From positions 139,481,418 through 139,545,417 of the forward strand of contig CP092864.1 in assembly GCA_030710605.1 (NCBI GenBank): 64,000 nt of DNA. Reading direction: 5' to 3'. This stretch comes from Cordylochernes scorpioides. Its lineage: Eukaryota. This document shows positions 30,070 to 64,000 of the stretch, in pieces. The notes beneath the pieces are model-generated. The model made no database searches. It saw nothing but the letters and a program-made list of their open reading frames with translations, and had not been told where the DNA came from. How positions within the stretch are numbered: the first letter of the stretch is position 1; every line of letters starts with the position of its first letter. The position numbers and the translations under genes were made by a program.

Positions 30070-30101
<32 letters not shown>

Positions 30102-38868: not shown

Positions 38869-39101
38869 TTTATGTATAAACAAGGATTGACAATAGAATA
38901 TATGAAGGATGTGATTGAAAGTTTTTTTCATTTATTGGGTAAAAAAAACAGCAAACTTTCAAGCATTAGCCTTTTATAAGGACATTGAGTCTGCATAGAT
39001 GAGCACTACAATAATTCAACCCACTATAATATTCAACAGGAAGTACCTTTTCCTTAGGGAATGGAATTAAAGATATTTGACTGTATATATATGTCATAAT
39101 T

Positions 39102-45206: not shown

Positions 45207-45408
45207 TGCAACATCTTCGTACACATTTATTTTTAGCAAATCTTTATTGTCTTAGTAAAGTCTGATACAGCCTTTTATTGTTTATTTTCGGAACGCCAAA
45301 AAGTGACAAAAACAAATCAAAAAGGGATGATGATAACCTGCGTCTTGCAGATTAACATTTTCATAGAAACATATATATATATACATATTTATTGCTAGCT
45401 ATATATCA
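45207..45408 (-). repeat. 3' LTR of gypsy-like element 2
   Basis: Identical to 49562-49763. Confidence 0.9.
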
Positions 45409-45421
45409 CCATCTTCTCTCT

Positions 45422-46372
45422 TCAAACACGAAATCTCACAGGCGGTCTCCTCGCTCGAGGTGGGTTCCGCCTTAGGACAGGACCCTCCTCTTTCAAGGCC
45501 TCGGGGTCCAGCGAGCGAAGAGGCTCCAATGACTTTCCATCGTCTGTATCACTCTGAACCTCTGAATCTTGATCCGACCGCTGGCTAGTTAGTCCTGGCG
45601 ACAGCGACTCCATATAACCTCTGTCTCGTACAACCTCCGAGATTATGGCACTGGGACCTGCTCCTCTTGAGTGCTCGGGTTGACGCTCTCCATCTCCACT
45701 CTCATCTTCCTCACCATTCCTCCACCTTTTTCTAATTTGATCCCTGTGATAGGCCTTTACCTGTCCGTGGATCAAAATGGTGTAGACTCTAGTTCCCTTC
45801 TTGCCCACAATTTTTCCTGGGATCCATTTATCACCACCTCTAAAGTTTTTACACCACACTAAATCATCTATCTGGAATTCTTCCAAATGGGTTCGCCGAT
45901 CATACTTCATTTGCCTGGCTTGCTGGTCCCTAACTCTAGATGCCAAGCTGGGATGTATCAACGATACTCTGGTTCGAAGCGCACGCCCAATAAAGAGCTC
46001 TGATGGAGTCTTTCCCGTTGTCACATGCGGGGTGCTTCGATATGCCAGAAGAACTTTTGATAAGGTGTCTTGAATGGTATCCCCAATTTTCCTTTTATTT
46101 TTATCCAGGGCAGTCTTAATTGTTCTAACCGCTCTTTCAGCCAAGCCATTACTTTGCGGGTGGTACGCCGGGATCAATGTTTGTTTAATTCCATTTCCTT
46201 CCAGAAAACCTTTCATTTCACTACCAGTAAACTGAGGTCCATTATCAGATACAAGTTCCTCCGGTAGACCATAGGAAGAAAAAAGTCGCCGTAGTTGCTC
46301 AATGGTTTTGCGTGTGGTGGTCTCTCTCATTGGGATGGCTTCGATCCACTTTGAATGACTATCTACTACTAT
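45422..46372 (-). CDS. pol: Integrase catalytic core and C-terminus, in the same frame as the upstream Gag-Pol ORF and separated from it only by one TGA (46373-46375)
   Basis: Reading through the TGA gives ...HIDFANKENINL*IVVDSHSKWIEAIPMRETT..., which is the expected integrase D-region. The rest contains SDNGPQFTG and HPQSNGLAER (DDE core). Confidence 0.85.
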   Translation of the reverse strand: MVVDSHSKWIEAIPMRETTTRKTIEQLRRLFSSYGLPEELVSDNGPQFTGSEMKGFLEGNGIKQTLIPAYHPQSNGLAERAVRTIKTALDKNKRKIGDTIQDTLSKVLLAYRSTPHVTTGKTPSELFIGRALRTRVSLIHPSLASRVRDQQARQMKYDRRTHLEEFQIDDLVWCKNFRGGDKWIPGKIVGKKGTRVYTILIHGQVKAYHRDQIRKRWRNGEEDESGDGERQPEHSRGAGPSAIISEVVRDRGYMESLSPGLTSQRSDQDSEVQSDTDDGKSLEPLRSLDPEALKEEGPVLRRNPPRARRPPVRFRV

Positions 46373-49300
46373 TCATAAATTAATGTTTTCCTTATTTGCA
46401 AAATCAATGTGAATTCTTTGCCAAGGTCTGGTTGACCATTTCCAGGGTTGCCATTTTCCTTTATTTGGCCCATCCTGGGATTGCTGACAGCTTCTGCACT
46501 TATTTACCAAAAACTCGATTTGGGTATCTAGATTTGGCCACCAAAAATGTGATCTTGCTACAGCCTTCATTTTGTTCATACCAGAATGAGTCTCATGAAG
46601 ACAGTTCAACATTTTTATTCTGAGAGATGGTGGAATGACAACTCTCATTCCCCAAACCAAACACTCCCCATCTACAGTTAGCTCAAGTTTCCTTTGAAAA
46701 TAAGGTCTGAGGTGATCAGCCACCTTTTCAGGCCAGCCTTGCTGAGTATAAAATTTGGCCAATGAGAGCACTTCGTCTTTTTCAGTTTCTGTGGCAATTT
46801 CCTCTGCTGTGATCGGCAATTCTTCCACATAGGATAAAGCATAGACATTATTTAATCTTGGAATTTCTTCACAGCCCACAGGAAAACGTGACAGAAGATC
46901 TGCATTCCCATGGTCTTGAGTTCTTCGAAATTTAATATCGTAAGTATAAGCTGACAAAATAAGCGCCCAACGCTGCAATCTTGAAGTAGATAAGGTGGGG
47001 ATTCCTGATCTTGAGCCCAAAATGGTCACCAATGGCTTATGGTCTGTAATAAGAATAAATTTTCTTCCATAAATAAATTGATGAAACTTGGTAACTCCAT
47101 AAATAATGGCTAGAGCCTCCTTCTCAATCTGAGAATAATTTTGTTCTGCTACCGATAAAGTCCGTGAGGCAAACATAATCGGTCTCTCCTGGCCTTCTAT
47201 AATATGTGACAACACAGCGCCCACTCCAATCTGCGATGCATCAGTGGCCAAACACAATGGCAAAGTCGCATCATAAGGGACTAGCACCCTCTCAGAGGTA
47301 ATGCTATTCTTGCACTTGTCAATGGCCTCTCCACATTCCTTTGTCCAAACCCAAGGACGTTTTTTGTGAAGAAGCTCATGAAGAGGCTTCAAAAGCTCTG
47401 GCAAATTGGGTATGAACTTCCCATAAAAGTTTACCAAACCAAGAAATGACCTTAATTCAGAGATATTCGTAGGCGTTTTGGCCTTCTGTATTGCTTGTAC
47501 CTTATGATCTAAAGGTCTGATGCCCTCTTCCGTGACAAGATGTCCTAAATATTCAATTTCTTTTTGCAAAAATAGGCATTTTTCTTTCTTTAGTTTGATA
47601 TTATACTTCGCCAAGCGAGCAAATATAGTCTTCAACAACGCCAGATGTTCTTCAATTGATGCTGTGGCTATAAGGACATCATCAATATAACAAATTACGC
47701 CTCCTATACCTGACAAAACCCTATCCATTACAGATTGAAAATAACTGGGCGCATTTGCCAATCCAAATGGCATTCTCTTAAACCTGAAAAGCCCTTTATG
47801 AGTATTTATCGTTAGTAACGGTCGGGTGCCTGGGTCCACCTCTAATTGCAGATAAGCGTTCCTCAAGTCCAATTTAGAAAAGTATTTTCCCTTGGCCAAT
47901 GTGGAGAATAAATCTTGCTGTGTGGGAAGGGGATAGGCCGCAGTGTCCAAATATTTATTTAGAGTTACCTTGAAGTCGCAGCAAATTCTGATCTCTTTAT
48001 TTTTCTTCGGCACTACAACCACTGGAGTGGCCCATTTACTGCTCGCCACCTCACATAGATAACCCTTAGCCACCATTTTGTCTAATGCTTCAGTAACTGC
48101 TGGCCTAATGGCGAAAGGCACCGGACGAGCCTTATGGAAAATTGGATTCACATCACACATGTTTACTGAAAATGTGAAACCTTTTATTGGTTCGGTTGTC
48201 TCCACAAATAGGGCTTGATTTTCCTTCAAAATTTCCTCAATGGTAATTTCCACAGGCATATGTTTTACCGCGAAACAGCCCAATTTCAATCTATTTATCC
48301 ATTCTCTTCCCATCAAAGCCCTCTTTTCTCCTTTCACCACCAACGCTCTAAGTTTGTAAGTAATATCTTGACACTCCACTTTGACATTGATTTTACCCAG
48401 AATGGGTACCACGGTACCATCATAAGTTCTTACAATAATACTCGCTTTTTCCAATTTCAAGTGTTGAAGACTATTTTTAAAATCCTTTTCTGATATCAGT
48501 GTTAGACCACTACCCGTATCCATTTCAAATTTAATAAAGTTTCCTTCTACTTTTAACTCCATCAGATAGGGAGGGTCACTTGAGGCAAAATTAATTTTAT
48601 ACTCAGGTATCGTCACGCTTATAATTTTCTGGACATACTCTTCCTCCTCTTCTTGGTCTCCTATCTGATGTATATTTCCCGGCTGATTCTGATGTTGCCT
48701 TAGATTTCTTCTACTGCTCCAACATATTGAGGCAATGTGTCCTTTTTTATTACACTTAAAGCATATCGCCTCCTTAAATCTACATAGTTCTTTATGCTGT
48801 TTACCACAATGTTTACATTTGCCATTCTGGAAATTTGAATCAACCTTGCGTTCCATCCTCAACTTATCTACACAATCTTCACCCTGCTCCAAGTGAAATA
48901 ATTTTGTATTTTTCTCGGCCGCTTCCATAGATAATGCTATCTCAATTACTTTAGCTAAAGAAATGTCGCCCTCCGACAAAATTCTATTTTGTATTTTGGC
49001 ATTATATAATCCACAAACCATTTTATCACGTAAAGAATCCTCCAGAAAATTTCCAAAGTTGCATGAGGAAGCCAAACGCTTAATTTCCACCAAGTAATCC
49101 GAGATGCTTTCTTCCTTTAATTGCATTCTTTTAAAAAAAATGAACCTCTCTACTACAATTGAGCGCTTTGGAGAGAAGTGCCTTTTCAAGATATCTATTA
49201 GGTTATCAAAAGTTTTATCTTTAGGTAGAATAGGACTGCACAAATTCTTCAAAACACCATATGTTTTACTTCCCATGAGGGTTAGGAGATAAGCCTTTTT

Positions 49301-49408
49301 CTTCTCATCCCCTGCCTCCTCCAATATGAGAAACTGTTCCAATCGTTCATAAAACGTTTCAAAAGTTTCAGTTTCCTCATTATATTCCTTAAATTGGTAA
49401 CTAGCCAT
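46373..49408 (-). CDS. gag-pol: Fused Gag-Pol: gag with two CCHC knuckles (CKHCGKQHKELC, CFKCNKKGHIASIC), protease (FEMDTGSGLT), RT (CYIDDVLIA), RNase H (LATDASQIGVGAVL), integrase zinc finger (HETHSG..CRSCQ)
   Basis: 1011-aa ORF. gag and pol are in a single frame, with no frameshift. Confidence 0.9.
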   Translation of the reverse strand: MASYQFKEYNEETETFETFYERLEQFLILEEAGDEKKKAYLLTLMGSKTYGVLKNLCSPILPKDKTFDNLIDILKRHFSPKRSIVVERFIFFKRMQLKEESISDYLVEIKRLASSCNFGNFLEDSLRDKMVCGLYNAKIQNRILSEGDISLAKVIEIALSMEAAEKNTKLFHLEQGEDCVDKLRMERKVDSNFQNGKCKHCGKQHKELCRFKEAICFKCNKKGHIASICWSSRRNLRQHQNQPGNIHQIGDQEEEEEYVQKIISVTIPEYKINFASSDPPYLMELKVEGNFIKFEMDTGSGLTLISEKDFKNSLQHLKLEKASIIVRTYDGTVVPILGKINVKVECQDITYKLRALVVKGEKRALMGREWINRLKLGCFAVKHMPVEITIEEILKENQALFVETTEPIKGFTFSVNMCDVNPIFHKARPVPFAIRPAVTEALDKMVAKGYLCEVASSKWATPVVVVPKKNKEIRICCDFKVTLNKYLDTAAYPLPTQQDLFSTLAKGKYFSKLDLRNAYLQLEVDPGTRPLLTINTHKGLFRFKRMPFGLANAPSYFQSVMDRVLSGIGGVICYIDDVLIATASIEEHLALLKTIFARLAKYNIKLKKEKCLFLQKEIEYLGHLVTEEGIRPLDHKVQAIQKAKTPTNISELRSFLGLVNFYGKFIPNLPELLKPLHELLHKKRPWVWTKECGEAIDKCKNSITSERVLVPYDATLPLCLATDASQIGVGAVLSHIIEGQERPIMFASRTLSVAEQNYSQIEKEALAIIYGVTKFHQFIYGRKFILITDHKPLVTILGSRSGIPTLSTSRLQRWALILSAYTYDIKFRRTQDHGNADLLSRFPVGCEEIPRLNNVYALSYVEELPITAEEIATETEKDEVLSLAKFYTQQGWPEKVADHLRPYFQRKLELTVDGECLVWGMRVVIPPSLRIKMLNCLHETHSGMNKMKAVARSHFWWPNLDTQIEFLVNKCRSCQQSQDGPNKGKWQPWKWSTRPWQRIHIDFANKENINL

Positions 49409-49561: not shown

Positions 49562-49763
49562 TGCAACATCTTCGTACACATTTATTTTTAGCAAATCTTT
49601 ATTGTCTTAGTAAAGTCTGATACAGCCTTTTATTGTTTATTTTCGGAACGCCAAAAAGTGACAAAAACAAATCAAAAAGGGATGATGATAACCTGCGTCT
49701 TGCAGATTAACATTTTCATAGAAACATATATATATATACATATTTATTGCTAGCTATATATCA
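49562..49763 (-). repeat. 5' LTR of gypsy-like element 2
   Basis: Identical to 45207-45408. Confidence 0.9.
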
Positions 49764-49889
49764 AATTCTTCTAACACAATCAAGTATTGGAGATTTGAAA
49801 CAATCTAGTTCAATAATATGTGAAATCCTCCTACAGTTCACTCCTAGAGTTCACTTCTTACACTAATAATATTTACAGTACTTTAAAAT

Positions 49890-49930: not shown

Positions 49931-49984
49931 ATTAGATCAGTTTAGAGAAAATCAGCCTACAACCAAATCTAAATTAAGCAAGCC

Positions 49985-50357
49985 TCTTCTTCTTCTTTCT
50001 TATCTCCACTCAATCATATTAGGGTATCAAGTTGTGACCCTTGATGGTGTCTGTTTGACAACCACCATGACTGGGTGAAGTAGAATACGTCTGCCTTTGT
50101 CATTAAGACTGGGAGCACTACTCAGTGGCAGGCCGACTTAGCTCCAAAAAAATGGCCGCCTCTGACATGAGGAACAGACGCCATGTGCAGCCGCTCCTAA
50201 CATGGAGTACAAACGCTGCTCATCCTGTATCCCTGGATTAGGAGCCCTTACAGTGTACATCAGTCGGGCCAGTTGAACCCAGGTTTTTTTAGCGAGCTTG
50301 TTACTGCTTCCCCTCCTCCTTTTTCATCCGGGCTTGGGGCCGGCAAAGGCAGAGTTT
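49985..50357 (-). mobile_element. SINE-like interspersed repeat (D family), copy 1; shares a GAGATAAGAAAGAAGAAG tail module with the tRNA-SINE
   Basis: About 95% identical to 60841-61207. On the minus strand it ends in a (GAA)n-like tail. A box-B-like CCTGGGTTCAACTGGCCC lies near its minus-strand 5' end. Confidence 0.5.
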
Positions 50358-50520
50358 AAGCAAGCCTTAAATGTAATAACAAGATAGAGACATGATGAGG
50401 CTCAAATTATGTAGGTATATTTTTTCTTAAATCTTTAATAATTTTTTTGTGAAATAATAGGTAAGAGAGAAGCCTTCTTGAACTTATATTTTTTAAAAAT
50501 GGTAAATATTCTCTGCAATA

Positions 50521-50703
50521 CAGTAGAACCTCCCTTTGGCGGACACCCTGCTAGCGAACACCTTTCTACAAAGGACAGTGTTTTCATATGCAAAATCACC
50601 ATTTTTACAATTTAGTAACTCTCTGTTAAGAGGACACCTCTCCGTAAAGGAAACTTTGGTTCTACAATTAGGTGTCCTTAACAGGGAGGTTCTACTGTAC
50701 AAC
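50521..50703. mobile_element. Tc1-type MITE (183 bp) with terminal inverted repeats CAGTAGAACCTCCC flanked by TA
   Basis: TA|CAGTAGAACCTCCCTTTGG ... CAGGGAGGTTCTACTG|TA. A solo copy of the same terminus sits at 61352-61368. Confidence 0.65.
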
Positions 50704-50911
50704 AGTTTCAAACTTAGGAAAGCTGACTTAATCAGTTATGAAAAAGCATTACCAAGAAAAAAAACTGGATTATAAACACAATTTTTGTGCTAAAGTAGAT
50801 AAAACACTTTATTATTAGACATAGGTGAATATATACAACAACATCAACTAACTCTGGGACAAATGTGAGAGGCTGTCCAATGGTAGATTGTTCTCAGACA
50901 ACAATAGCCCA

Positions 50912-51203
50912 TCAGTGATGTGAAGGTGAGGTACTGAAGGGGAAAGGAGCAGAAGGCAGGAGCTGTTTGCCCTGGAGGTAGAGCTGGAACTGCGCCAGGT
51001 GGTGCTGCGTGGTGTTGCGCAGGGCGCAGTACCCCAGCACCACCTCCAGGGCCACAAACACCCCCTGCACAGCGTCCAGTGCCAGCTCCAGTGGGAACAC
51101 CACCAGTACCTCGCAGGCCACCAGAGCACAGAAGAACGGCAGCTTCACCAGCACAGACATCAGCCAGAACCCTGCCAGCCGTGGGATCTGGAACACCTCC
51201 GGG
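50912..51203 (-). CDS. Putative terminal coding exon of a host multi-pass membrane protein gene (acceptor CTCTCTCTCTAACCAG|, stop TGA at 50912-50914, AATAAA about 105 nt downstream)
   Basis: Hydrophobic helix-rich translation ...EVFQIPRLAGFWLMSVLVKLPFFCALVACEVLVVFPLELALDAVQGVFVALEVVLGYCALRNTTQHHLAQFQLYLQGKQ... There is a polypyrimidine-AG acceptor at 51204-51205 and a poly-A signal (TTTATT on +) near 50806. It has no TE hallmarks. Confidence 0.45.
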
Positions 51204-51436
51204 CTGGTTAGAGAGAGAGATTGAAACTACTTTATTTCAAAGTCCATATAAGATTATATAAGGTAAAATACATAAATATGATTATATAATGATAAAAATA
51301 TGAATAAATAGATATAAATAATTGATAAATATACATATATATACAATATATATAGTTCATTGGTCTTCCTGGTTAACTTCATTGCCTCGCGATTGGGGCC
51401 GACGCCGAACAGCCATGCCTGAAGATCTAGGGGCTC

Positions 51437-52440
51437 ACCTGCCGGGGCAGGGGTCGCATGGCTAGGCAACTCAAAAATCTGTGGGTCAGCGACCCCTCGC
51501 TGGACTCACATTCGGCACAGGTGGACCCCGCCTCGAGGCAGGATAGAACTTGAGTAAGGATGCCGAGCAGAGTTCCTGGCACGCGACAGCTTCTTATACA
51601 TGGTGTTGCTAGTATTCCCTGTTAAAGCCATAAGCGTCGTGGCCAAGGTGTCGATGGCCATTCTCTGCTGGATGTTGGATTTGGCCAGAAGCTTGTCAAT
51701 GTCCAGGCCTTCTTCAATGAGCCTCTCTGCGAGCTGCACGCTGGAGAGGCCGACTAGGATGTGCCCCTCCATCTTGCTCAGCTGGTACACGCAGCCTTTT
51801 CCCAGCATCGCCTCCAGCGCCATGAAGTACTGCGCCTGGCTGAATTCTGGGGAGAATTCCAGGTAGGCACATTGGTCTACCTGACCGGCCACCGACTTGG
51901 CTCTGAAGTCTGTCTGTTTGTGCAGAGTTTTTGCGCACCTCTGCACTCTGGGCTTGTTCGCAGGGGGTGGAACAGTAGGCTTGGTGGCACCAGGATGGAC
52001 GCGGCCTCTTTTGCTCTGCCATTCTGCCGCCGCTTCAGCTGGCCTCTTGCGCTCATGGTTGACGAGGATGAAGCCATCATCTTGATCCTCCATCGGGAGT
52101 TGTTTGCCTTGTTCGACGAGGTCAGCCCAGCTCGTCGAAGGCATGCCTGTACCAGGCTGTAGTTCTTCGTAGTTCCCCTCAGTTACCACTGGGGCCTGAG
52201 GAGTGCTAATGGTATCAGCAGGTGTAGATAATGAATGGCTCTCAGCCAATGTAATCGCGTCTTGGAGGGGTGGGGAATCCCCCATGAAATTTAAAGAAAA
52301 TCTAAAAGAATAAAAATTTCAGGCTTAAAAATAGAACGCCAAAGAACACGCCACGCTGGCGGGGTTAAGCGGGAGCGCGCGCACGCATGTGCGCCTGTGC
52401 CGCTCGAGAAAGAGGTAAAATTAGACCACTAGTGAACCCT
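51437..52440 (-). mobile_element. ORF2-deleted copy of the LINE family (3' terminal hairpin plus an ORF1-like gene only)
   Basis: The 3' terminal ~95 bp (GCAACTC..CTGTGGG..CAGCGACCC..GGCAGGAT) matches 30973-31070. The ORF1-like region 51590-51700 matches 35300-35420. Confidence 0.6.
51506..52285 (-). CDS. LINE ORF1-like protein (259 aa), intact reading frame
   Basis: Shares a conserved block with the degenerate ORF1 region of the large LINE copy. No RT follows it. Confidence 0.5.
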   Translation of the reverse strand: MGDSPPLQDAITLAESHSLSTPADTISTPQAPVVTEGNYEELQPGTGMPSTSWADLVEQGKQLPMEDQDDGFILVNHERKRPAEAAAEWQSKRGRVHPGATKPTVPPPANKPRVQRCAKTLHKQTDFRAKSVAGQVDQCAYLEFSPEFSQAQYFMALEAMLGKGCVYQLSKMEGHILVGLSSVQLAERLIEEGLDIDKLLAKSNIQQRMAIDTLATTLMALTGNTSNTMYKKLSRARNSARHPYSSSILPRGGVHLCRM

Positions 52441-52492
52441 CTCAGCGGCTTCGCCAAATTAATCTCCAGACCACTCTACTATTATATTGGAA

Positions 52493-54004
52493 CTAGACGA
52501 ATGGCCCGGGCAACGCCCGGGGTTTACCCGAGTGCGAATATATTTTAAAAACGTTGTCTTGGGTGGTCGCTATAGACAGGGTGGTCTGTATAGACAGGTG
52601 TATGTATCACACTGCTGATAACAGGGTTGCCTGAAGTGACCGCTATAGACAGGGTGGTCTGTATAGACAGGTGATTGTAACACACTGATGATAACAGGGT
52701 TGCCTAAAGTGACCGCTATAGACAGGGTGGTCTGTATAGACAGGTGGATGTATCACACAGCTGATAACAGGGTTGTCTAGAGTGGCCGCTATAGACAGGT
52801 GTATGTATCACACAGCTGATAACAGGGTTGTCTAGAGTGGTCGCCATAGACAGGGTGGTCTGTATAGACAGGTGTATGTATCACACAGCTGATAACAGGG
52901 TTGTCTAGAGTGGTCGCTATAGACAGGGTGGTCTGTATAGACAGGTGAATGTATCACACAGCAGATAACAGGGTTGTCTAGAGTGGCCGCTATAGACAGG
53001 GTGGTCTGTATAGACAGGTGGATGTATCACACAGCTGATACCAGGGTTGTCTAGAGTGGCCGCTATAGACAGAGTGGTCTGTATAGACAGGTGGATGTAA
53101 CACACTGCTGATAACAGGGTTGTCTAGAGTGGCCGCAATAGACAGGGTGGTCTGTATAGACAGGTGTATGTATCACACTGCTGATAACAGGGTTGCCTAA
53201 AGTGACCGCTATAGACAGGGTGGTCTGTATAGACAGGTGAATGTAACACACTGATGATAACAGGGTTGCCTAAAGTGACCGTTATAGACAGGGTGGTCTG
53301 TATAGACAGGTGGATGTATCACACAGCTGATAACAGGGTTGTCTAGAGTGGCCCCTATAGACAGGTGTATGTATCACACAGCTGATAACAGGGTTATCTA
53401 GAATGGCCGCTATATACAGGGTGGTCTGTATAGACAGGTGGATGTAACACACTGCTGATAACAGGGTTGTCTAGAGTGGTCGCTATAGACAGGGTGGTCT
53501 GTATAGACAGGTGTATGTATCACACTGCTGATAACAGGGTTGCCTAAAGTGACCGCTATAGACAGGGTGGTCTGTATAGACAGGTGAATGTAACACACTG
53601 ATGATAACAGGGTTGCCTAAAGTGACCGCTATAGACAGGGTGGTCTGTATAGACAGGTGAATGTAACACACTGATGATAACAGGGTTGCCTAAGGTGACC
53701 GCTATAGACAGGGTGGTCTGTATAGACAGGTGGATGTAGCACACTGCTGATAACAGGGGTGTCTAGAGTGGCCGCTATAGACAGGGTGGTCTGTATAGAC
53801 AGGTGGATGTAACACACTGCTGATAACAGGGTTGTCTAGAATGGCCGCTATAGACAGGTGTATGTATCACACAGCTGATAACAGGGTTGTCTAGAGGGGG
53901 GCAGGGAGGTCACGTGTTCATCCGGCAGCCAATGGGCGCGCATTCTATCCGTGAGCTTCAGACATACAGACAAACAGACAGAATAAGGCAAATATATAAG
54001 TAGA
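52493..54004 (-). mobile_element. Helitron-like non-autonomous element carrying a 73-bp tandem array and a G-tract, CACGTG, CCAAT module
   Basis: On + it begins with a|CTAGACGAATGGCCCGGGCAACGCCCGGG (the reverse complement of a 3' hairpin plus CTAG). On + it ends with ...CAAATATATAAGTAGA (5' TCTACTTATATATT on -). Near the 5' end is GGGGGGCAGGGAGGTCACGTG..CCGGCAGCCAATGGGCGCGC. Confidence 0.65.
52560..53890. repeat. Minisatellite: about 18 tandem units of ~73 bp (CGCTATAGACAGGGTGGTCTGTATAGACAGGTGNATGTANCACACNGNTGATAACAGGGTTGNCTNNAGTGNC), with some 55-bp short units
   Basis: Direct reading. The minus-strand 62-aa MCYIHLSIQTTLSIA ORFs are repeat artifacts. Confidence 0.9.
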
Positions 54005-54065
54005 TGGTTTTCTTATATACCTGCATTTAATAAGGAAGGCAGCTTAGGGGTGTTTAGAGAACCTA

Positions 54066-54190
54066 CTAGCCAAATGGCCCGGGCAACGCCCGGGTTTTAC
54101 CCGATTAAATGCTTTTATTCAAATACTATTTGTTACAATTATAAATTGGCGCCGTGGATTCAATTCTTGTATAATATATAAATGAGTTTT
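54066..54190 (-). mobile_element. Truncated Helitron-like 3' fragment (the 38419-38868 subfamily in inverse orientation)
   Basis: a|CTAGCCAAATGGCCCGGGCAACGCCCGGGTTTTACCCGATTAAATG... matches the reverse complement of 38760-38868. Confidence 0.55.
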
Positions 54191-54209
54191 AAAAATTGTA
54201 AAAAAAAAA

Positions 54210-54280
54210 TGCATCGGCCGGGAATCGAACCCGGGCCGCCCGCGTGGAAGGCGAGCATTTTACCACTGAACTACCGATGC
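54210..54280 (-). tRNA. trnG-UCC: tRNA-Gly (anticodon TCC), 71 nt, with a downstream T(10) Pol III terminator
   Basis: The minus-strand sequence GCATCGGTAGTTCAGTGGTAAAATGCTCGCCTTCCACGCGGGCGGCCCGGGTTCGATTCCCGGCCGATGCA folds as a cloverleaf. It has a 7-bp acceptor stem, box A TAGTTCAGTGG, an anticodon loop CTTCCAC and box B GGTTCGATTCC. It is highly similar to metazoan tRNA-Gly-TCC. TTTTTTTTTT follows the 3' end. Confidence 0.85.
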
Positions 54281-55296
54281 TTATAAGAAATGGCCATATT
54301 TGGGTATTTATTCCATTCACACAAAAGCAAACGGTGACAGAATTAAGAATTGATTAATGACTCTGATACTTGTATTAATTAATGCTTATAGGTCTGTAGA
54401 GGTGCATACTTCAAGAAATTACATCGAGCAAAGCTCTTCAGCAAATATGGTTTTATATCAAAGCTATATGAGCTATAAATTAAATAACAACAGCATTGAT
54501 ACCATCTTCAGAGAAAAGTATTAAAATGGACTCTTCTTTCTTCTTCTTTCTTATCTCAAAGCCATGATAATCATGGTGGGTAGTTAGAGACTAAAATGGA
54601 CTAAAACTTAGATTCTAAAAAATTTTTGAAATTGGTAACAATTTTGTTATCGAAGGTAGCCTTTAATTATTCAATTGAGTTTTTCAATAATTTGAAATTT
54701 CTTTACATTGCAAGAAACTCTCATTGTCCCAGATTAGCATTGGACATTACTAGAAATTTAAACATACCACTTTTAGTTTTGGCTTTGCATACCACCAAAG
54801 GTGGCCTTTTATTTTTAGACCTCCTCTGGTAAATCTGCAGCCTGTTAAATAGGAAATTGATTGTACAGTTGAATATTGATTTGAAAAAAATGTGTCAGGT
54901 AACCAAAAGGTTTCGGTCTTAAATCATATCTGGATCTATATTTTATTAGTTACCCTACTGGAACTGTATTCAGGATCAATACACAATCAGTCTTAAATAC
55001 AAGGTGGTCTAAAATTCAGAGTAGGTCTTAAAACAAGAAATAACTGAATAAACTCACTCACTTAAGCAAGCTAACAAAATATTTTGTCTAAAAAAATGGT
55101 GGTTTTGAAATTAGCACTGTGTAATAAGTGAGAGCATTATGTGATGTGGAAAAAGATAAAGCACAATTTGGATTATAGATTATAGCTACAAGAAAATAAG
55201 ACCTAATCCAAATAAATTAATAATATGTGACATTTCAGTAACATCATTGTTACCATCATCAGACAAAAGAATAAATGATTTATTCTTTATTATATA

Positions 55297-55654
55297 CTAG
55301 ACGGGTAACCCGGGCTTCGCCCCGGGATTGACCCGTGTGCATATCTACCCGAGCGATATATATTTAGATAAGATTTTTTAAAATAATTTTTTGTTATTAG
55401 CATTATCTATTTGTTTGCATCAGCATAATTTAATCTAATCTTTGATAGAGGGCGCTGTTCGTGAGCTAAGTAGAATAATTTGAATATACAGTTTTAATAA
55501 TTGATTTATATATTTTTTAAAATAGCCTATCGTCTTCCCCGTATTTTTTTACCTATGTATGGAAATTTTGGTTTGAATTAGTGAACTACTGCGAATTTGT
55601 ATACCGGACATAAAAACAAACAAACATACAAACATTCATTTATATATATATAGA
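55297..55654 (-). mobile_element. Helitron-like non-autonomous element (358 bp), nearly identical to 60111-60466
   Basis: On + it runs a|CTAGACGGGTAACCCGGGCTTCGCCCCGGGATTGACCCG ... CATTCATTTATATATATATAGA. On - this is 5' TCTATATATATATAAATGAATG and 3' hairpin plus CTAG. Confidence 0.7.
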
Positions 55655-55830
55655 TATAACAGCATTGTTACCATCATCAAACAAAAGAATAAATGATTTA
55701 TTCTTTTACTATATATATAACAGCATTGTTACCATCATCAGACAAAAGAATAAATGATTTATTCTTTATTATATATATAACAGCATTGTTACCATCATCA
55801 GACAAAAGAATAAATGATTTATTCTTTATT
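55655..55830 (+). repeat. Tandem ~60-bp units x3 (TATAACAGCATTGTTACCATCATCAGACAAAAGAATAAATGATTTATTCTTTATTATATA). A fourth unit sits at 55240-55296 on the other side of the Helitron, and an inverted copy at 56139-56235
   Basis: Direct reading. The Helitron 55297-55654 interrupts the array. Confidence 0.8.
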
Positions 55831-55833
55831 ATA

Positions 55834-56138
55834 GGGGGGTTGGTGGAAGGATGGTCTAAACCGTTGGTTTACGACCGCTACGACCCGGGCTCGATTCCCA
55901 CATTGGGCACTTTTTTCTGATTTAAAAAAAATGCTCCAATGGCCCCTGATTCTTGTAAAAGTCCAACCCCACCAGCGAGGGCAAGTAACCAAACGGGGAT
56001 CTGGGACATTTGTAAGTGCAAAGTCGAACCGCTTTTCACATGTGTAGACATGTGGTGCACTTACAATAAAAGCAGTCGCCTTCTACCCACCATGATTATT
56101 ATGGCCTGTACCACGTGTACTAGGAATAAGCAAAAAAA
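55834..56138 (+). mobile_element. tRNA-derived SINE, copy 2
   Basis: About 93% identical to 44194-44503, with the same GGGGGGTYGGTGGAAGG head, GGGYTCGATYCC box B and an A-rich tail. Confidence 0.75.
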
Positions 56139-56409
56139 TAAATCATTTATTATTTTGTCTGATAATGGTAACAACGCTGTTAATGAAATGTCACACGCTA
56201 TTAATTTATTTGGATTAGGTCTTATTTTCAGTAATGTGTAAAAATTACACTCATGGACAAATTAAGGAAGTTCTACCTCCAAGCACGAGTTTCTTACTTT
56301 ATTTTATATTTTTTTCTCTAGCTTTCGGGTTTTACAAACCCTTCTACAGGAGTATGTGATAGGAAATAATTCAAGATACATTCATGCTTCAAAGCCATTT
56401 TATTCATTA

Positions 56410-56905
56410 CTAGCGGACATACCCGGCTTCACCCGGGTTTTACCCGAGTAAAAGTTTGTCTAACGAATCTCTCGATAAAGTGAACATTTTTTCCCGGTCC
56501 CTTTAAAAATACTCGATAAGTTGAATAAAATCAATATTAATTGGTTCCCTCGGTAATTGGAAGTTAAAGGAATAGTATCTTGACTTGGAATTGTATCATT
56601 ATTCTTGTCTCAAATAAATTGCCGTGTCATCCTGAATTTTGTCTTTCCTAATTTTCTACATTACAAAATCATCGTATCATCATGATAATATTTAGAGCAG
56701 ATTGTTGAATTATAACAGATAAATTAGAATATTTATCTTGATTATTTTTAGGCGAAAAGTTATTTCAAAAATTTTATTTGCTAGAAACCTTCCCAGTACT
56801 ATACTAAATACCTTCCCAAAGTTTCATGGCATTCCAATGAGTGGTTTGGTCAGGCATAAAGGACAGACAGACACACATACATTCTCATTTTTATATATAT
56901 AAAGA
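56410..56905 (-). mobile_element. Helitron-like element, inverted copy of 35930-36425
   Basis: Its reverse complement aligns end-to-end with 35930-36425. CTAG at 56410-56413; 5' TCTTTATATATATAAAAATGAGAATG at 56905. Confidence 0.7.
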
Positions 56906-56940
56906 TTCAATACTTGTATCCCAAAAAAAGGAGGACTTAC

Positions 56941-57081
56941 ATCAGAGTTGAGGTTCCCTGTGTAGCCCATGAACAGTCTGGGGGCCTCCGCCAACAATCC
57001 GACCATGAGGAAGAACATGTTCAGCAGGCGGTTGAAGTCATCCAGAAAGGGATACTGCCACAGGATTAAAACTTTCCCAGT
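56941..57081 (-). CDS. Putative internal coding exon of the membrane protein gene (acceptor CTGCAG|, donor |GTAAGT)
   Basis: Translation TGKVLILWQYPFLDDFNRLLNMFFLMVGLLAEAPRLFMGYTGNLNSD (141 nt, open). A consensus GTAAGT donor sits at 56935-56940 (reverse complement). The exon lies between a Helitron and the piggyBac. Confidence 0.35.
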
Positions 57082-57140
57082 CTGCAGTTAGTAATCCTGA
57101 AAATTTCAATGAGCCAAGTAAGCAGAGGCAATGATTTTAA

Positions 57141-59285
57141 CCCTTTAAGCGCCGAGGTAACGATCCATCGTTACCCTATAACGTCACCAGGAGCGCCGGG
57201 GTACCGATCTATCGTTACTTCCTTGTAGGGCCCCTCGTGGGGGAGGGGGTGGTGGCTGGCTATTTTTATCACCTCCCTTCTCACTTCTGGGCTTGTCTCT
57301 ACACGTTAGCTGTGTTTTTATCTCCTTTGTCTTGCGATTTCCTTTTTTTATTTTTAATTTTTTAAAAATGGCTTCCGGTTCAGAATGCTCTGCATTTTCT
57401 GAGGACACTGAAGTTTATTCTTTGTCTTCTGAGTTTGAAGAAAGTGTTGAAGACACTTTTGAAGATGAATTTTCTGATGAAGAAGTGGATGAAAACCAGC
57501 CAAGTCCTTGGGTAAGAGTTTATACTCCATTTTCCACATCTAAAACGTTGACTTTTGGAGAAGTTTGTGGCCCACAGCACCTTCCCCCCTCTATTATCCG
57601 GCCTATTGAATACTTTTTGTTATTCATAACAATTAATTTGATGAAGGAAATTGTGGCTTTTACCAATAAATGTGCCCAAACTTTATTGGCAAGCAATAGG
57701 GACAAATTGCCTCTATTTTCTAGGAAGCTGGCCTGGAAGGACACTACCTTGGATGAGATGATGGCCTTTATTGGAGTCATCTTCAATATGGGCAATGTGA
57801 AGAAGAACCAAATCAGGGACTATTGGAGCAAGAATGAACTTTTAGAGACGCCCTGGTTTGGTAAAGTTATGTCTAGAGGGAGATTTGAGTTGCTCTACAG
57901 CTGCTTTTCTCTGATTGATGACTCCAACCTGGTTCCAAGTTCTCATCCTGATTACAACCCAACTGCAAGATTTGAGAAGCTCATAGAGCATGTGAACAAC
58001 AAGTTTATATATTATTATAAGCCTACTCAAAATCTTACAGTTGATGAGAGCTTGGTGTGCCTAAAAAACCGAACTCGTCTTAGACAATATATGCCCCAAA
58101 AGCACCATGGTCGATTTGGAGTCAAACTGTGGATGCTTTGTGAATCTAAAACTGGCTATTGTCTGAGAATGAAGCCATATAAAGGGAAATTATCTCCAAT
58201 TATCAAGTCCCTTTCCTATGATGTTCCAATGAATCTGCTCCAGGAATCCAGTTTACTTGGAAAAGGTTATCATTTGATAACTGACAACTTTTTCACCAGC
58301 ATCAACCTAGCCAAGGACTTACTGGACAGTCATACTTATTTGACTGGTACTATAAGAACTAATAGGAAAGGACTTCCTAAAACCTTAAAAAGTGCAAAAT
58401 TAGGTGTTGATGAATCCCTTTATATGGTAAATAATAATCTACTGGCCCTGGCTTACAAAGAAAAGAAGAGCAAACCTCCAGTGAAGTTTCTCTCAACATT
58501 TTGTGATGCTTCTTCTGGCAAAAAGAAGGTGTCAGACCAAAGAGACTACCCACAGATGAAAATATGCTATGATAGCTACATGGGAGGGGTAGATCTCAAT
58601 GATCAAATGTTGTATACATATATGGATGAAAGAAAAGGAAGAAAATTTTATAGAAAGGTGATCCTCAACATCTTCCACAGGGCTTTCCTAAACTCCTTCA
58701 TCCTATATGAACAGCATACCAAAGACAACCCCAAGCTTTCTAGAAGGGCTTTTAACTATTCAGTAATAAATGAATTAGTTAAAAATCACTTGAAACCTCC
58801 AGTACTGCCTTCAACAAGCCAGGAAGTACTCGAAAAACTTCCAGAAAAGAGAGAGAGTAGATGTGTGGAGTGTACAAAAGAAGGCCTGAAGCGGAGGTCT
58901 AGAACCATATGTTCAAAGTGCAAGAGAGGCTTGCATCCAGTCTGTGCTTTTAAACACAAGTGTTAGCTTTGTAAATAGCCTTGTATATATCTAAAATTCC
59001 TTTTTATATTTGTAAAACCTTATTTTGAAAAATTCAAGTCGATTATTCAATTAATTATAATTAACCCCCAATTAAAAAATTAAATACTCACTCCAGTATA
59101 ATAAAATCAGAGTGTTGTGTTGAGAGAGGAGTCTGGATTATATTACACTTTACAGAACACTTCTATCTATCATATTTATTTATTTATAACATTTTTTACT
59201 TAACAACTACTTGATCATCAGTTTAGGCTTAATTAGTGTGGTCCTGATAGTGATAGTTAGCATTCGGGCCCTAGAGCTTAAAGGG
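57141..59285 (+). mobile_element. piggyBac-family DNA transposon (2145 bp) with TTAA target-site duplications and terminal inverted repeats CCCTTTAAGC / GCTTAAAGGG
   Basis: TTAA at 57137-57140 and 59286-59289. The terminal 10 bp are perfectly inverted, with partial matches beyond. A single intact transposase ORF lies inside. Confidence 0.85.
57368..58966 (+). CDS. piggyBac transposase (about 533 aa from MASGSECS), intact ORF with a DDD catalytic region and a C-terminal Cys-rich domain (CVECTKEG..CSKCKRGLHPVCAFKHKC)
   Basis: Conserved piggyBac blocks: DESLVCLKNRTRLRQYMPQKHHGRFGVKLWMLCESKTGYCLRMKPYKGK, GYHLITDNFFTS, LTGTIRTNRKGLP and YDSYMGGVDLNDQ. There are no internal stops. Confidence 0.9.
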   Translation: MASGSECSAFSEDTEVYSLSSEFEESVEDTFEDEFSDEEVDENQPSPWVRVYTPFSTSKTLTFGEVCGPQHLPPSIIRPIEYFLLFITINLMKEIVAFTNKCAQTLLASNRDKLPLFSRKLAWKDTTLDEMMAFIGVIFNMGNVKKNQIRDYWSKNELLETPWFGKVMSRGRFELLYSCFSLIDDSNLVPSSHPDYNPTARFEKLIEHVNNKFIYYYKPTQNLTVDESLVCLKNRTRLRQYMPQKHHGRFGVKLWMLCESKTGYCLRMKPYKGKLSPIIKSLSYDVPMNLLQESSLLGKGYHLITDNFFTSINLAKDLLDSHTYLTGTIRTNRKGLPKTLKSAKLGVDESLYMVNNNLLALAYKEKKSKPPVKFLSTFCDASSGKKKVSDQRDYPQMKICYDSYMGGVDLNDQMLYTYMDERKGRKFYRKVILNIFHRAFLNSFILYEQHTKDNPKLSRRAFNYSVINELVKNHLKPPVLPSTSQEVLEKLPEKRESRCVECTKEGLKRRSRTICSKCKRGLHPVCAFKHKC

Positions 59286-60110
59286 TTAAACCAGGGCAAA
59301 TAAGACTTTACCACCCTGATTAAAAACTCATCTATGATAAGATACAATTTGGATTATAGATCAGAAACCAAGATAACAGAACCAAATACAAATAGTATGT
59401 GAAGTTTCAGGAAAAAGGGTTGTTACCATCATCAGAAAAAAGTTTTCTTGATTGGCTCTGTCTGCCTTGCTAGCAACATCTTTTCTTTTTTAATCGTAAC
59501 TCAATCATATTAGGCCTGTAGAGCTTGAGATTTATATTGTCTGCTGGGGATGAGTACAGCTCATCAATGGATGAGTCAATGCTATGCTGGCAACAACAGC
59601 ACCCTCTATGGTCACCTCAAGCTCCACAAGGTGGGTTGGTCCAGATAGACATTTACTTATTTGGATTTGGTCTTGTTACCGTATGTTAAAAACTTGTCTA
59701 TTACATAAATATTTCAACTACAAGACTTTTCATTAAAACTTGTAATAAAAGCTTCCATTTGATGCTAAAAAAATGCACTCGCAAGACAAGTTGACTCCTA
59801 AGAGATAGGTTAAATAAAAAATTGGTTATAAAAACATAAAACTATTCTTTCTTTGGAAAGTACAATCCTCTGCAATACATATAAATAATAAACAAAATGG
59901 CTTCATAGGATCAGTTTCTTATTTTATTTTATATCCCTCTCAAGCTTTCGTGTATCACAAACCCTTCTACAGGACTCCTGAAGGCAGCTTTGAGATACCA
60001 GAAAGCTTTAGAATAATATAAAATGTAAGAAATTCATCCTATGAAGCTCAAAGTGATATGACCAAATCTAAATAAATAATGTCACACTATTTATGTGTGT
60101 TTATAATCTA

Positions 60111-60466
60111 CTAGACGGGTGACCCGGGCTTCGCCCCGGGATTGACCCGTGTGCATATCTACCTGAGTGATATATATTAAGATAATATTTTTTTAAATAA
60201 TTGTTTGTTATTAGCATTATCTATTTGTTTGCATCAGCATAATTTAATCTAATCTTTGTTAGAGGGCGCTGTTCGTGAGCTAAGTAGAATAATTTGAATA
60301 TATAGTTTTAATAATTGATTTATATATTTTTTAAAATAGCCTATCGTCTACCCCGTATTTTTTTACCTATGTATGGAAATTTTGGTTTGAATTAGTGAAC
60401 TACTGAGAATTTGTATACCGGACATACAAACAAACATACAAACATTGATTTTTATATATATATAGA
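60111..60466 (-). mobile_element. Helitron-like element (356 bp), near-identical copy of 55297-55654
   Basis: The same termini and internal sequence (GATAGAGGGCGCTGTTCGTGAGCTAAGTAGAATAATTTG...). Confidence 0.7.
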
Positions 60467-60840
60467 AGATAATCCAAGTTATGTGCTTTATCATCCTATG
60501 AAGCTATTTTGTTTATTTATACTATTCTTTCTTATGCAAAATCAACGATGCTCTTCATATAGGATTTTGAACACATTTAGTATTTAGGGATTTAAAAAAA
60601 TTAGACATGTTAAACAGGGTCAGATGCTTAAGAAAGCTAAATTAATGATGGAACAAACAATCCCTACTAAACTCCAAAGACAGGTGACTGCAGATTTTAC
60701 TGTATTTAGTTCTCCTTATTGGTCTCTGTGTCACATCATTAAAAGTTGCCTTACTTGAGAGCAAAAAAGTGTCCAATGATGGCTGACCTCCATTTTGTAG
60801 TTGGCCCTACAGTCAAACCTCTCACTTATGGATAAGATCT

Positions 60841-61207
60841 CTTCTTCTTCTTTCTTATCTCCACTCAATCATTAGGGTATCAAGTTGTGACCCTTGATGG
60901 TATTTGACAACCATCATGACTGGGTGAAGTAGAATGCGTCTGCCTTTGTCATTAAGACTGGGAGCACTACTCAGTGGCAGGCCGACTTAGCTCCAAAAGA
61001 AATGGCCGCCTCTGACATGAGGAACAGACGCCATGTGCAGCCGCTCCTAACATGGAGTACAAACGCTGCTCATCCTGTATTCCTAGATTAGGAGCCCTTA
61101 CAGGGTACTATCAGCCGGGCCAGCTGAGCCCAGGTTTTTTAGTGAGCTTGTTACTGCTCCCTCTCCTCCTTTTTCATCCGGGCTTGGGACCGGCAAAGGC
61201 GGAGTTA
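60841..61207 (-). mobile_element. SINE-like D-family repeat, copy 2
   Basis: Matches 49985-50357. Confidence 0.5.
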
Positions 61208-61879
61208 TGGATAAGATAATTGTTGCAAAGACAAAGTGTCCTTTAGGAAGAGGTATACTCTTACTGGAGAGTTGCTAATTAGTAAAAATGGTAATTTTGG
61301 CGATGAAAATTGTCCTTTGTAGAGTGATAGATTTCTCTAGTAAGAGTGCCTTGTCACAGAGGTTCTACTGTATAGGAAGAGAAAGCAGAGACAAGCTTGG
61401 GTCAGCATCAACAAATGTGTTTGGCTCTATGGTTTCCATTTTTGGTTACAATGTATAAATTTGACATGGGACTTATCCCTCCCAATATAAATAAATAATA
61501 TCACACATCAGTCTTTGCATTTTATGGGGGAGTATTTTCTTATAATTCAAGAATTATACAACAACAAAAATCCTTTATTAAAGACACTTGTACCATACAG
61601 GATTCTCCTAAATTGGGTAAACAGAAGTAAACATAACATTCATCTAGAGAAAGTGGAGATTAACATCGACCTTTCTTCAAGTTGGATCCATCATCTGTGT
61701 TGAGCCTATTGTCTGTGTTGTTTCCCAGAATTTGTGAAAAGCTAATGCATTAGGTTTGTTTTTCATTACTTTTTCCATTAGAGAACATATGCGGAATTGT
61801 TTTCATAACCAATCTTTTGCCGAGAATTTCTCTGTCTTCCTCCAATACCAGAAAATAAAAAGTGTAGTGGGGAAAGTCA

Positions 61880-62097
61880 TGGTTAACCCGGCATTGCGCG
61901 CGCCGGGTGAAAATTACCCATGGCAACATTTGAATGGAGAATTAACCAATAAAAAATCGGTTGCCGGAGATGTGGTTTCGTTTAGCTTCCTGACTCATCA
62001 ATTAATCTAAAGTTTTGGTTTCACATTTTGACAGCTCCCACTGAAATTCCATCTATTGTCACTGTCGGGTAAAAATTACCCGGCGCGCGCACTCACG
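61880..62097. mobile_element. MITE-like element (~215 bp) with GC-rich terminal repeats GGGTAAAAATTACCCGGCGCGCGC
   Basis: 61885-61915 (CCGGCATTGCGCGCGCCGGGTGAAAATTACCC) is inverted at 62056-62095. A solo terminus of the same family sits at 63788-63850. Confidence 0.55.
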
Positions 62098-62890
62098 TAA
62101 TTTTTTTGTTGCATTTTTTTAATAACATTTTTTAAAATGAGATAAATAATTCGAATTAATAATTTAAAAAATAACTATAATAGGTTGATATATTTATTAG
62201 CCTATAATTCTATATAAAATGGAGGGAAGAAGGTCATATTTATTAGATCAAGAAGAGATTATTGTAGAAGGTGATATTGAAGAAGATCATCTAAATGAAC
62301 ATTTTTATGGAGGTGACACTGGAATATATTCAGATATAGGAATTTTGTGGAATAAGGGAATTATCCCACAAACACATTTTTATATAGGGAGAGCCTCGAA
62401 AATCAAATGGTTCAAAAATTGTCCTTCACAAACAGTAAAGCTGAGAACGCCTAATGTCATTACACATTTACTAGGCTTGAAAGGTGAAGAAGCAAAATAT
62501 TAAAATACACCTTTAGAAGCTCTTTTGAAGAAAATTTTTGAAAGTTTTGGCCCTTGAACTCATCAAAGAGCAACTAAATCAAAGAAAAATCATTTCTTCA
62601 CTGCCTAAAAGACTATTAAAAATTTCCTTTTTTTACAGTTAAGTTAATTTAAATCATAAATGTATACTCTAAATATTTATTTCAATTATTTTTAGAAGTC
62701 ACTTCAAGCCATTAAGAAGGTCAGGAACCGCAAGATAAAGCTTCCTACCAGATGTAGTGTGTCCCTCCAGTAAGGACAGGAAGACCTCGACTTTGTGCCA
62801 TAAATGTGTAAAAGCCAATTTATAAAGGACATACAATTGCAGTTTGCAATGATTTGTCTAAAATATCCTCATGGAATTTTATATATTTAA

Positions 62891-63572
62891 CTAGCCGAAT
62901 GACCCGGGCAACGCCCGGGTTTTACCCTATTAAATGTACCCTGTTTCACCCGTGGTCTCTGTTTTTTGGAATATTTTTCCCGATATAATTTTGTATCTGA
63001 TAATCAAACTTGATACAGCAAAATTTTTAAAAAGCAAAATTTTTAAAATAGCCTATCGTCTTCCCAGTATTCTTTTACCTATGTATGGAAATTTTGGTTT
63101 GAATTAGTGAACTACTGAGAATTTGTAGACGAATGCCCCGCGCAACTGTCCAACTGGGAGCGCCCCGCGCCGTCAAAATCGTCACGCGTTCTAGAGGGCG
63201 CTGTTCGTGAGCTCAACCGGCCGTCAGCCGGGAGATCTCATTTACTCGGCGGGGGGGGGGGGGGGGGGGTGCAGGGGGAAGGGAAGTCACGTGCTGCGCC
63301 GGCAGCCAATCGTCGCGCGCCGCCATCGCCCGCCTGAGTGTTCTAGAGGGCGCTGCTCGTGAGCTAAGTTGAATAATTTGAATATATAGTTTTAATAAAT
63401 GATTTATATATATTTTAAAATAGCCTATCGTCATCCTCGTTATTTTTTACCTATGTATGGAAATTTTGGTTTGAATTAGTGATCTACTGCGAATTTGTAT
63501 AGGAGTCATACAAACAAAGACACAGACAAACAAACATACAAACATACAAACATTCATTTTTATATATATAGA
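62891..63572 (-). mobile_element. Cluster of rearranged Helitron-family fragments (a 3' CTAG/hairpin end at 62891, partial bodies at 63040-63240 and 63330-63572, each with a G(22), CACGTG, CCAAT module)
   Basis: 62891 a|CTAGCCGAATGACCCGGGCAACGCCCGGG. 63046-63125 and 63420-63572 match the 55297-55654 body. The 5' end TCTATATATATAAAAATGAATG (on -) is at 63572. Confidence 0.5.
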
Positions 63573-63914
63573 TATTGAAAAGGAGCAATAGTTTCATATT
63601 TTATATGCCATTACCAATTTTAAGGATTATTCAAGAATAGTTTTTAAAATGTTTAATCTGTGTAAAAAATATAAATATTTTATTATTAATTGCCTTTTTT
63701 GAAAATTAAAATGTTATTACTTTGAAATAGAAAAGGTTTTGTTTTTCCTCAGTTAATATTTATATTCAAAATATGTAATTTTAATATCGGGTAAATTTCA
63801 CCCAGCGCGCGCAAGTACGTTACATTTCTAGCGCGCGCGCTCGAGGGTTAAATTAACTATTGCACAGAGTGCACTTTATATTCTTAGATTTAAATAATAA
63901 ATAATGATAAAGAA

Positions 63915-64000
63915 AACTGGGCAACTCTGTGCTTCACTCCCATCAATAATTGACAATATGACCCAGAATAAGTATATTGCTACGGCGTTTTATGGTTTCC
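63915..64000 (+). repeat. Short repeat shared with 37930-38040 (AACTGGGCAACTCTGTGCTTCACT[T/C]CCATCAATAATTGACAATATGACCCAGAATAAGTATATTGCTACGGCGTTTTATGGTTTCC)
   Basis: An 86-bp near-identical match. It lies next to the Tc1-like pseudogene in one locus and at the window edge in the other. Confidence 0.6.

Follow-up and report, generated by a model that had tools for sequence, protein, structure and literature searches.

TMEM17 is a membrane protein with four helices. It is established as part of the MKS module in the ciliary transition zone (PMC4794247), and human ciliopathy variants in TMEM17 cluster in transmembrane helix 2 (PMC12779253). The locus described here lies in a window of 64,000 nucleotides from the Cordylochernes scorpioides contig CP092864.1 (assembly GCA_030710605.1, positions 139,481,418 to 139,545,417, forward strand). 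Two coding segments on its minus strand very probably represent the 3' half of a TMEM17 orthologue, as the two last coding exons, spliced directly to each other in phase 0 across a last intron that has been inflated by transposons. Helix 2 is encoded here by the 114-nt penultimate exon. By orthology, the protein would be expected at the ciliary transition zone with a role in the MKS module. The locus is a divergent but ordinary TMEM17 orthologue and leaves existing knowledge of TMEM17, tRNA-Gly, and the transposons described below unchanged; its value is mostly for annotation, as a gene of a ciliopathy family thereby gains a correct model in a genome that is rich in transposons and poorly annotated.

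Assignment to the TMEM17 family comes from profile searches with the translated exons. The Pfam profile PF09799 (Transmemb_17) gives one unbroken match to the joined exons (53.7 bits, E 3.5e-14; cut-off 26), which spans residues 6-91 and corresponds to profile positions 21-106 of 107. A phmmer scan of 1.84 billion representative proteins yields 274 matches to the joined product at E <=0.001. The alignments cross the exon junction, the matched proteins are ~190-200 amino acids (aa) long, and the top match is a "transmembrane protein 17B-like" protein of the scorpion Centruroides sculpturatus. A profile search gives TMEM17 or TMEM17B for every one of its 120 best named hits. The full HMMER scan was required, as a word-indexed protein search with the 138-aa joined product returned no match. 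A sequence search of the PDB returned none either. The original prediction had pointed to two open, hydrophobic segments on the minus strand with a GAT/GTAAGT donor (a slash marks an exon or element boundary throughout), CAG acceptors, a TGA stop, and an AATAAA hexamer, and had proposed a host gene for a multi-pass membrane protein that could not be placed in a family. The segments and signals are present, and the match to TMEM17 both bears out the host gene and provides the family; the translations do not match transposon proteins.

Local sequence features agree with this assignment. In alignment A2 the junction reads GNLNSD/IPRLAGFW against GNLxEK/VPELAGFW with zero gaps, and the invariant columns (E32, R35, G39, G42, N43, and W55) are all retained. 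The motif E..RL..GY.GNL...[VI]P.LAGFW is present and keeps its fixed spacing across the junction. The family profile score above cut-off, the E..RL..GY.GNL and PxLAGFW motifs, and their spacing are all as in TMEM17 and TMEM17B, whereas SDIPR stands here where the known proteins have EK[VI]PE. The sequence comparisons also place the protein with TMEM17 rather than with the paralogues TMEM216 or TMEM80. These paralogues belong to the same Pfam family and share the fold family and an RLF.G..GNL motif, but they lack a PELAGFW-type motif, and none is found among the best 120 named hits. The pairwise match to Limulus TMEM17 is gapless and scores 69 bits, whereas that to a human TMEM216 sequence entered by hand is gapped and scores 22 bits. 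The coding segments also differ from their surroundings in base composition, by more than chance: G+C at third codon positions (GC3) is 0.76 in the coding segments, which are themselves 51% and 62% G+C, as compared with an intron G+C of 0.41.

The penultimate coding exon (56941..57054, minus strand; 114 nt, 38 codons) extends from YPFLDDF to GNLNSD, carries helix 2 and the RLxxGYxGNL motif within the Pfam and hidden Markov model (HMM) matches, and ends in phase 0 at the donor GAT/GTAAGT (56941/56940, minus strand). The last coding exon (50912..51187, minus strand; 91 codons plus the TGA stop at 50914-50912) opens in phase 0 after the acceptor TTCCAG/ATC, with the exon start at 51187, and continues from IPRLAGFW through helices 3 and 4 and a C-terminal tail. 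A candidate polyadenylation signal, AATAAA, lies on the same strand 98 nt past the stop (50808..50813); such hexamers are common in AT-rich DNA. In the proposed gene model, exon 3 (57054..56941, possibly from 57081) would be spliced in phase 0 to 51187..50912, the two together encoding helices 2-4 and the tail, and exons 1 and 2 would lie beyond the window end. The last TMEM17 intron (51188..56940, minus strand) is a phase-0 intron of 5,753 nt, of which about three quarters is recognisable mobile DNA.

The choice of acceptor decides whether the two exons can be joined. The first CAG past the pyrimidine tract would start the exon at 51203, which mismatches the phase-0 donor. This mismatch is the basis of a different reading, in which the segments are not joinable and would either need an extra exon in between or come from two separate genes, as the original prediction had concluded. 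With a start at 51203 the frame shifts and homology is lost altogether; with a start at 51187, which sits 16 nt downstream, homology returns. The last exon matches the family HMM with E 4e-19, and tblastn alignments begin at 51187-51190. The start at 51187 is in phase, a single family match spans the junction with no residues missing relative to homologues, and nothing inside the intron matches the TMEM17 family. The 16 nt between the AACCAG/ acceptor and the in-frame acceptor (51188..51203, minus strand) are intronic in the favoured model, and the AACCAG/ acceptor directly follows a branch-like motif, CTCTAAC.

Intron position supplies support for the direct junction that is independent of these alignments. 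TMEM17 loci of Limulus, Lingula, Pocillopora, Branchiostoma, and Centruroides were fetched and their exons mapped. The last exon starts ...ag/GT[ACT] CC., directly before V-P, in 5/5 of these animals, and the preceding exon ends ...AAG/gt in 4/4 where it was mapped (all but Centruroides). A phase-0 intron therefore occurs at the proposed position in five animal phyla or lineages. Given that the 51187 junction coincides with this conserved position in five taxa, an unjoinable pair of segments is extremely improbable, and the earlier claim that a further exon or a second gene is needed is overturned. The intron position and phase are thus as in TMEM17 of these animals, and the 114-nt penultimate exon is as in Limulus and Lingula; the last intron is 5.75 kb long here and ~1 kb in Limulus.

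The same comparison bears on the upstream boundary of the penultimate exon. The homologous exon of both Limulus and Lingula has the same length, 114 nt, and begins at the Y of K/Y. The homologous Y here is preceded by GTGGCAG/TAT, 33 nt downstream of a TACTAAC branch-like motif. Because this exon length and intron position are conserved in Limulus and Lingula, a start at 57054 is preferred over the start at 57081 given by the original prediction, and 57054 is probably the correct one. The intervening 27 nt (57055..57081, minus strand), coding TGKVLILWQ, form an open stretch that continues the frame behind the CAG at 57082-57084 and shows weak similarity to homologues, with a TAA stop two codons upstream of the 57081 start; they are probably intronic.

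Both acceptor regions are built alike. Each has a CTAAC branch-like motif, then a CAG within 4-6 nt, and an in-frame CAG 20-33 nt from the branch A. By general splicing rules, the near CAG in each region would be too close to the branch motif for use. On this reading the decoy CAG precedes the real acceptor by 16-27 nt, so that a naive "first CAG" call breaks the frame. A decoy right after the CTAAC branch-like motif in both introns would be a practical trap for annotation.

Several points weigh against this gene model. The closest known TMEM17 proteins, those of the scorpion and the horseshoe crab, are only 37-40% identical. The in-frame acceptor is the third AG past the pyrimidine tract (CAG 51204, GAG 51197, and CAG 51188), and the GAG acceptor is likewise in frame and would add VFQ. 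Use of GAG/GTG (exon start 51196) was rejected and is kept as a minor alternative only, as GAG is a poor acceptor and the three extra residues are absent from all homologues. Finally, exons 1 and 2, which would encode ~65 residues with helix 1 and its N-terminal LPLQM.LYFN signature, have no minus-strand match in 57082-64000 by tblastn with 13 homologues or by a 62-sequence HMM run on all six-frame fragments. As these exons were not found in the 6.9 kb upstream within the window, a complete gene is not demonstrated.

The missing upstream exons, together with the saturation of the region with transposons, might instead indicate a relic: a pseudogene of TMEM17, or a truncated duplicate, that lost its 5' exons or was parted from them in a transposon-driven rearrangement and now makes no functional protein. 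The sole exon-2-like match, at 60588-60755, is on the plus strand and could be taken in favor of a relic. It scores 11.6 bits over HMM positions 23-62, the expected part of the profile, but was rejected as an exon because it is on the wrong strand, is AT-rich, lacks LPLQM and YFN, and is at chance level: 3/30 locally shuffled windows score as high. Both mapped exons are open, keep all invariant family residues, and have intact splice signals, and their GC3 is strongly above background. The Centruroides TMEM17B-like gene spans 16 kb, which makes an upstream intron of >7 kb plausible here. A relic therefore has little probability.

In two of the compared assemblies, those of Lingula and Branchiostoma, the last TMEM17 exon occurs at least two times in tandem, as near-identical copies ~300-650 bp apart (locus L002, 8133-8387 and 8623-8877; locus L124, 8853-9949). 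These tandem exons represent either a local duplication or an assembly artefact.

The last intron clearly illustrates how Helitrons and fragments of a long interspersed nuclear element (LINE) and a short interspersed nuclear element (SINE) can inflate an intron that is ancient and conserved in position. Transposon-inflated introns are commonplace, as are tRNA genes nested in introns. In the proposed history, the intron would have grown to 5.75 kb as four Helitron-type elements, a truncated LINE, and a SINE inserted one after another, along with short tandem arrays; splicing would remove them all, and none would need a function of its own. Read on the minus strand from the donor end, the order is Helitron H4, an inverted-repeat arm (56229-56133), the SINE, a 60-bp array, Helitron H3, and the second arm (55288-55192). 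Then follow ~900 nt of AT-rich DNA that for the most part has no assignment, the tRNA gene with its terminator, Helitrons H2 and H1, the LINE remnant, and a 22-bp repeat tail. Element termini, further copies, and the ARAGORN and Rfam calls agree with the original prediction of an intron packed with nested transposons and a tRNA-Gly. An open reading frame 2 (ORF2)-deleted LINE, a SINE, and a 60-bp array were correctly named. Helitrons are also present as proposed, and three are complete; the count of three falls short of the four 3' termini found, and a 1.3-kb array of 73-bp units had not been listed.

Non-autonomous Helitrons or Helentrons with internal tandem repeats are known, for example, from oyster (PMC7492417). 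The elements in this intron resemble them in several respects. They start with TC, end with CTAG, and sit between an A and a T, and a GC-rich hairpin precedes the 3' end by ~10 nt. Close to the 5' end there is a microsatellite-like stretch, and the interior has a satellite-like array (in H1, a 73-bp unit in ~18 copies). They differ in unit sequence and host lineage and have no Rep/helicase ORF, and may be derivatives of either Helitrons or Helentrons. H1 (52493..54004, minus strand) is non-autonomous, has the structure A/TC...hairpin...CTAG/T, and carries the 73-bp array at 52553-53895 (~18 copies over 1.3 kb, with 55-bp variants). H2 (54066..54153, minus strand) is a 3'-end fragment consisting of the hairpin and CTAG. 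H3 (55297..55654, minus strand) is a non-autonomous element of 358 bp with copies at 60100-60466 (95% identical) and within 63040-63575. H4 (56410..56905, minus strand), also non-autonomous, is 496 bp long and has a 92% identical copy at 35923-36437. Thus, four Helitron 3' termini occur in the intron, three of which belong to complete elements, and sister copies are found elsewhere in the window.

The termini of these elements are well defined. Seven Helitron 3' ends align through ...CCCGGGCGTTGCCCGGG..(10 nt)..CTAG, and their similarity ceases beyond the T that comes next. The 5' ends read A/TCT.TATATA in five minus-strand elements, the set on which this reading is based, with the flank of the plus-strand copy at 35.9 kb left out. 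The elements therefore show, in H2 at the 3' end only, the Helitron hallmarks of a 5' TC, a 3' CTRR, a hairpin ~10 nt before the 3' end, A/T insertion, and no target-site duplication. No Rep/helicase ORF was found in or near the elements of the intron, which identifies them as non-autonomous derivatives. All four intronic Helitron-type elements are oriented like the host gene, and the 5' end of H4 is only 35 nt downstream of the exon splice donor (56905 as compared with 56940).

The LINE (non-LTR, i.e., without long terminal repeats) remnant at 51362..52285 (minus strand) is internally deleted. It consists of a 259-aa gag-like ORF (51506-52285) and a short 3' piece, and an AT-rich 22-bp repeat tail (51274-51339) follows it. 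Homologues of the ORF occur only in the pseudoscorpion Cordylochernes scorpioides, where they are annotated as "Gag-like" or hypothetical and are 49-85% identical. By tblastn, the similarity of the ORF to one such Cordylochernes protein covers residues 1-152 and a short piece at the C terminus. Neither an RNA-binding/zinc-knuckle region nor a reverse transcriptase is present in the remnant. A Pfam search with the 259-aa ORF gave no match, and its nature rests on the named homologues.

The SINE-like retroposon (55833..56142, plus strand) has a tRNA-like head and is antisense to the host gene. A 91% identical copy at 44193-44502 ends in poly-A and is flanked by the target-site duplication TGATAATGYAAGG. 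The 60-bp tandem array at 55649..55833 comprises 3.1 copies of a unit that shows relationship to both inverted-repeat arms (55192-55288 and 56133-56229). Another fragment, at 54530-54600 on the minus strand, ends in GAGATAAGAAAGAAGAAGAAAGAAGAG. Its 3' tail is common with a twister-headed retroposon found elsewhere in the window (see below), and its internal block CTACCCACCATGATTATCATGG is common with the tRNA-like SINE. This sharing suggests several SINE families that use the 3' tail of one LINE partner.

The single tRNA detected by ARAGORN in the whole window is a tRNA-Gly with a TCC anticodon (54210..54280, minus strand; Rfam score 63.7 bits), on the same strand as the host gene. A run of ten T residues (T10; 54200..54209, minus strand), an RNA polymerase III terminator, directly follows its last base. 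The closest described relative is animal tRNA-Gly(GCC): 68/71 bases are identical to the Drosophila tRNA-Gly(GCC) printed in PMC6587125. The acceptor stem, anticodon stem, and whole T arm are the same in the two, whereas A9, A22, and T34 are found here. The three differences are thus G9A, G22A, and G34T. G34T converts the anticodon from GCC to TCC, and G22A replaces the C13-G22 pair of the D stem with a C13.A22 mismatch, which is flagged in the Rfam cmscan alignment. The acceptor, anticodon, and T stems are perfect, and the D stem alone departs from full pairing of the four stems. The tRNA call and the T10 terminator of the original prediction hold; its intact cloverleaf does not, given the D-stem C13.A22 pair, and "functional-looking" was over-optimistic.

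By comparison with the textbook consensus, the B box GGTTCGATTCC matches exactly, and the A-box region reads TAGTTCAGTGG. Because the B box and terminator are intact, as are the acceptor stem, the anticodon stem, and the T arm, transcription is plausible, and the gene is probably still transcribable by polymerase III. The comparison with natural sequences identifies it as a copy of the very strongly conserved tRNA-Gly(GCC) gene in which three bases have changed. It is more probably a drifting extra copy, which may be decaying, than the standard tRNA-Gly(UCC) of the organism. The tRNA-Gly(GCC) body with a TCC anticodon has zero matches in 241 million metagenome records, as compared with at least 120 stretches when the same pattern is allowed to carry GCC. 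Among the environmental loci that were fetched, 134/134 tRNA copies have G at positions 9, 22, and 34, and 124/134 are identical to the fly sequence.

A possible, though doubtful, alternative is that the gene encodes a working tRNA-Gly(UCC), which arose by an anticodon switch in a tRNA-Gly(GCC) copy and has been kept to decode GGA and GGG. Position 34 is not among the glycine identity elements, and the switch would therefore leave charging in place. The perfect acceptor, anticodon, and T arms, the intact B box, and the T10 run directly after the gene are all consistent with such a tRNA, as is an Rfam score that still reaches 63.7 bits. The two further substitutions, however, fall at positions that are G in 134/134 natural copies, and one of them breaks C13-G22; nor does the lack of any TCC version of this body in the metagenome records, as compared with the GCC stretches, favor a retained isoacceptor. 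A live isoacceptor switch, with A9 and the C.A pair tolerated and with sense-strand transcription by polymerase III within the TMEM17 intron, seems unlikely. Whether drift, the preferred explanation, or anticodon switching is at work, the gene makes a small case study. An origin of the tRNA as cargo of the adjacent Helitron H2 is unsupported because H2 and its copy at 38737-38869 are homologous only as far as GGCGCC, and 57 nt separate this point from the terminator.

Among the other repeats of the window, a ~375-bp retroposon is, together with the possible anticodon switch of the tRNA, the most unusual side observation. The Schistosoma element Perere-3 carries twister variants at its 5' end (PMC8501958), and the ~375-bp retroposon similarly has a twister-like motif at its 5' end, but the element here is SINE-sized. 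Its two copies, 49984-50356 and 60839-61206 (both minus strand), are 94% identical. Each starts with a twister-P1-like motif on the minus strand (50307-50361 and 61157-61211) and ends in a (GAA)n-type tail. The motifs score 37.9 and 46.6 bits with Rfam RF03160, below the gathering score of 67.2, and have CUUUG in place of the optional P3 stem. The target-site duplications that flank the copies, GGCTTGCTTAA and ATCTTATCCATAA, lie immediately next to the predicted cleavage site; that of copy 1 also provides the 5' strand of P1. A palindromic element of ~150-180 bp (ACAGTAGAACCTCCCT...AGGGAGGTTCTACTGT) that resembles a miniature inverted-repeat transposable element lies a short way upstream (minus strand) of each twister-headed copy, at 50509-50658 and 61232-61383. 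These two palindromes are 75% identical, and their placement reflects either target preference or chance.

Larger elements are present as well. A piggyBac-type transposase ORF at 57293-58966 (plus strand) lies inside the presumed upstream TMEM17 intron, on the opposite strand to the gene. It is intact, with 557 aa (532 aa from the ATG at 57368) and a full-length match to PF13843 (E 4e-71), and no exact copy of it is on record in the gene-position index. Two Ty3/Gypsy-type LTR retrotransposons, at 11076-15526 (plus strand) and 45422-49408 (minus strand), carry gag, protease, reverse transcriptase, RNase H, and integrase domains, and long direct repeats such as 45207-45417 and 49562-49772 look like Ty3/Gypsy LTRs. 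Finally, direct repeats of several kb, 98-100% identical, link 549-6040 with 18959-22085 and 29198-30511, ~16 kb and 28.6 kb apart. These repeats are very recent transposon copies or segmental duplications, and the window is thus dominated by young repeats.

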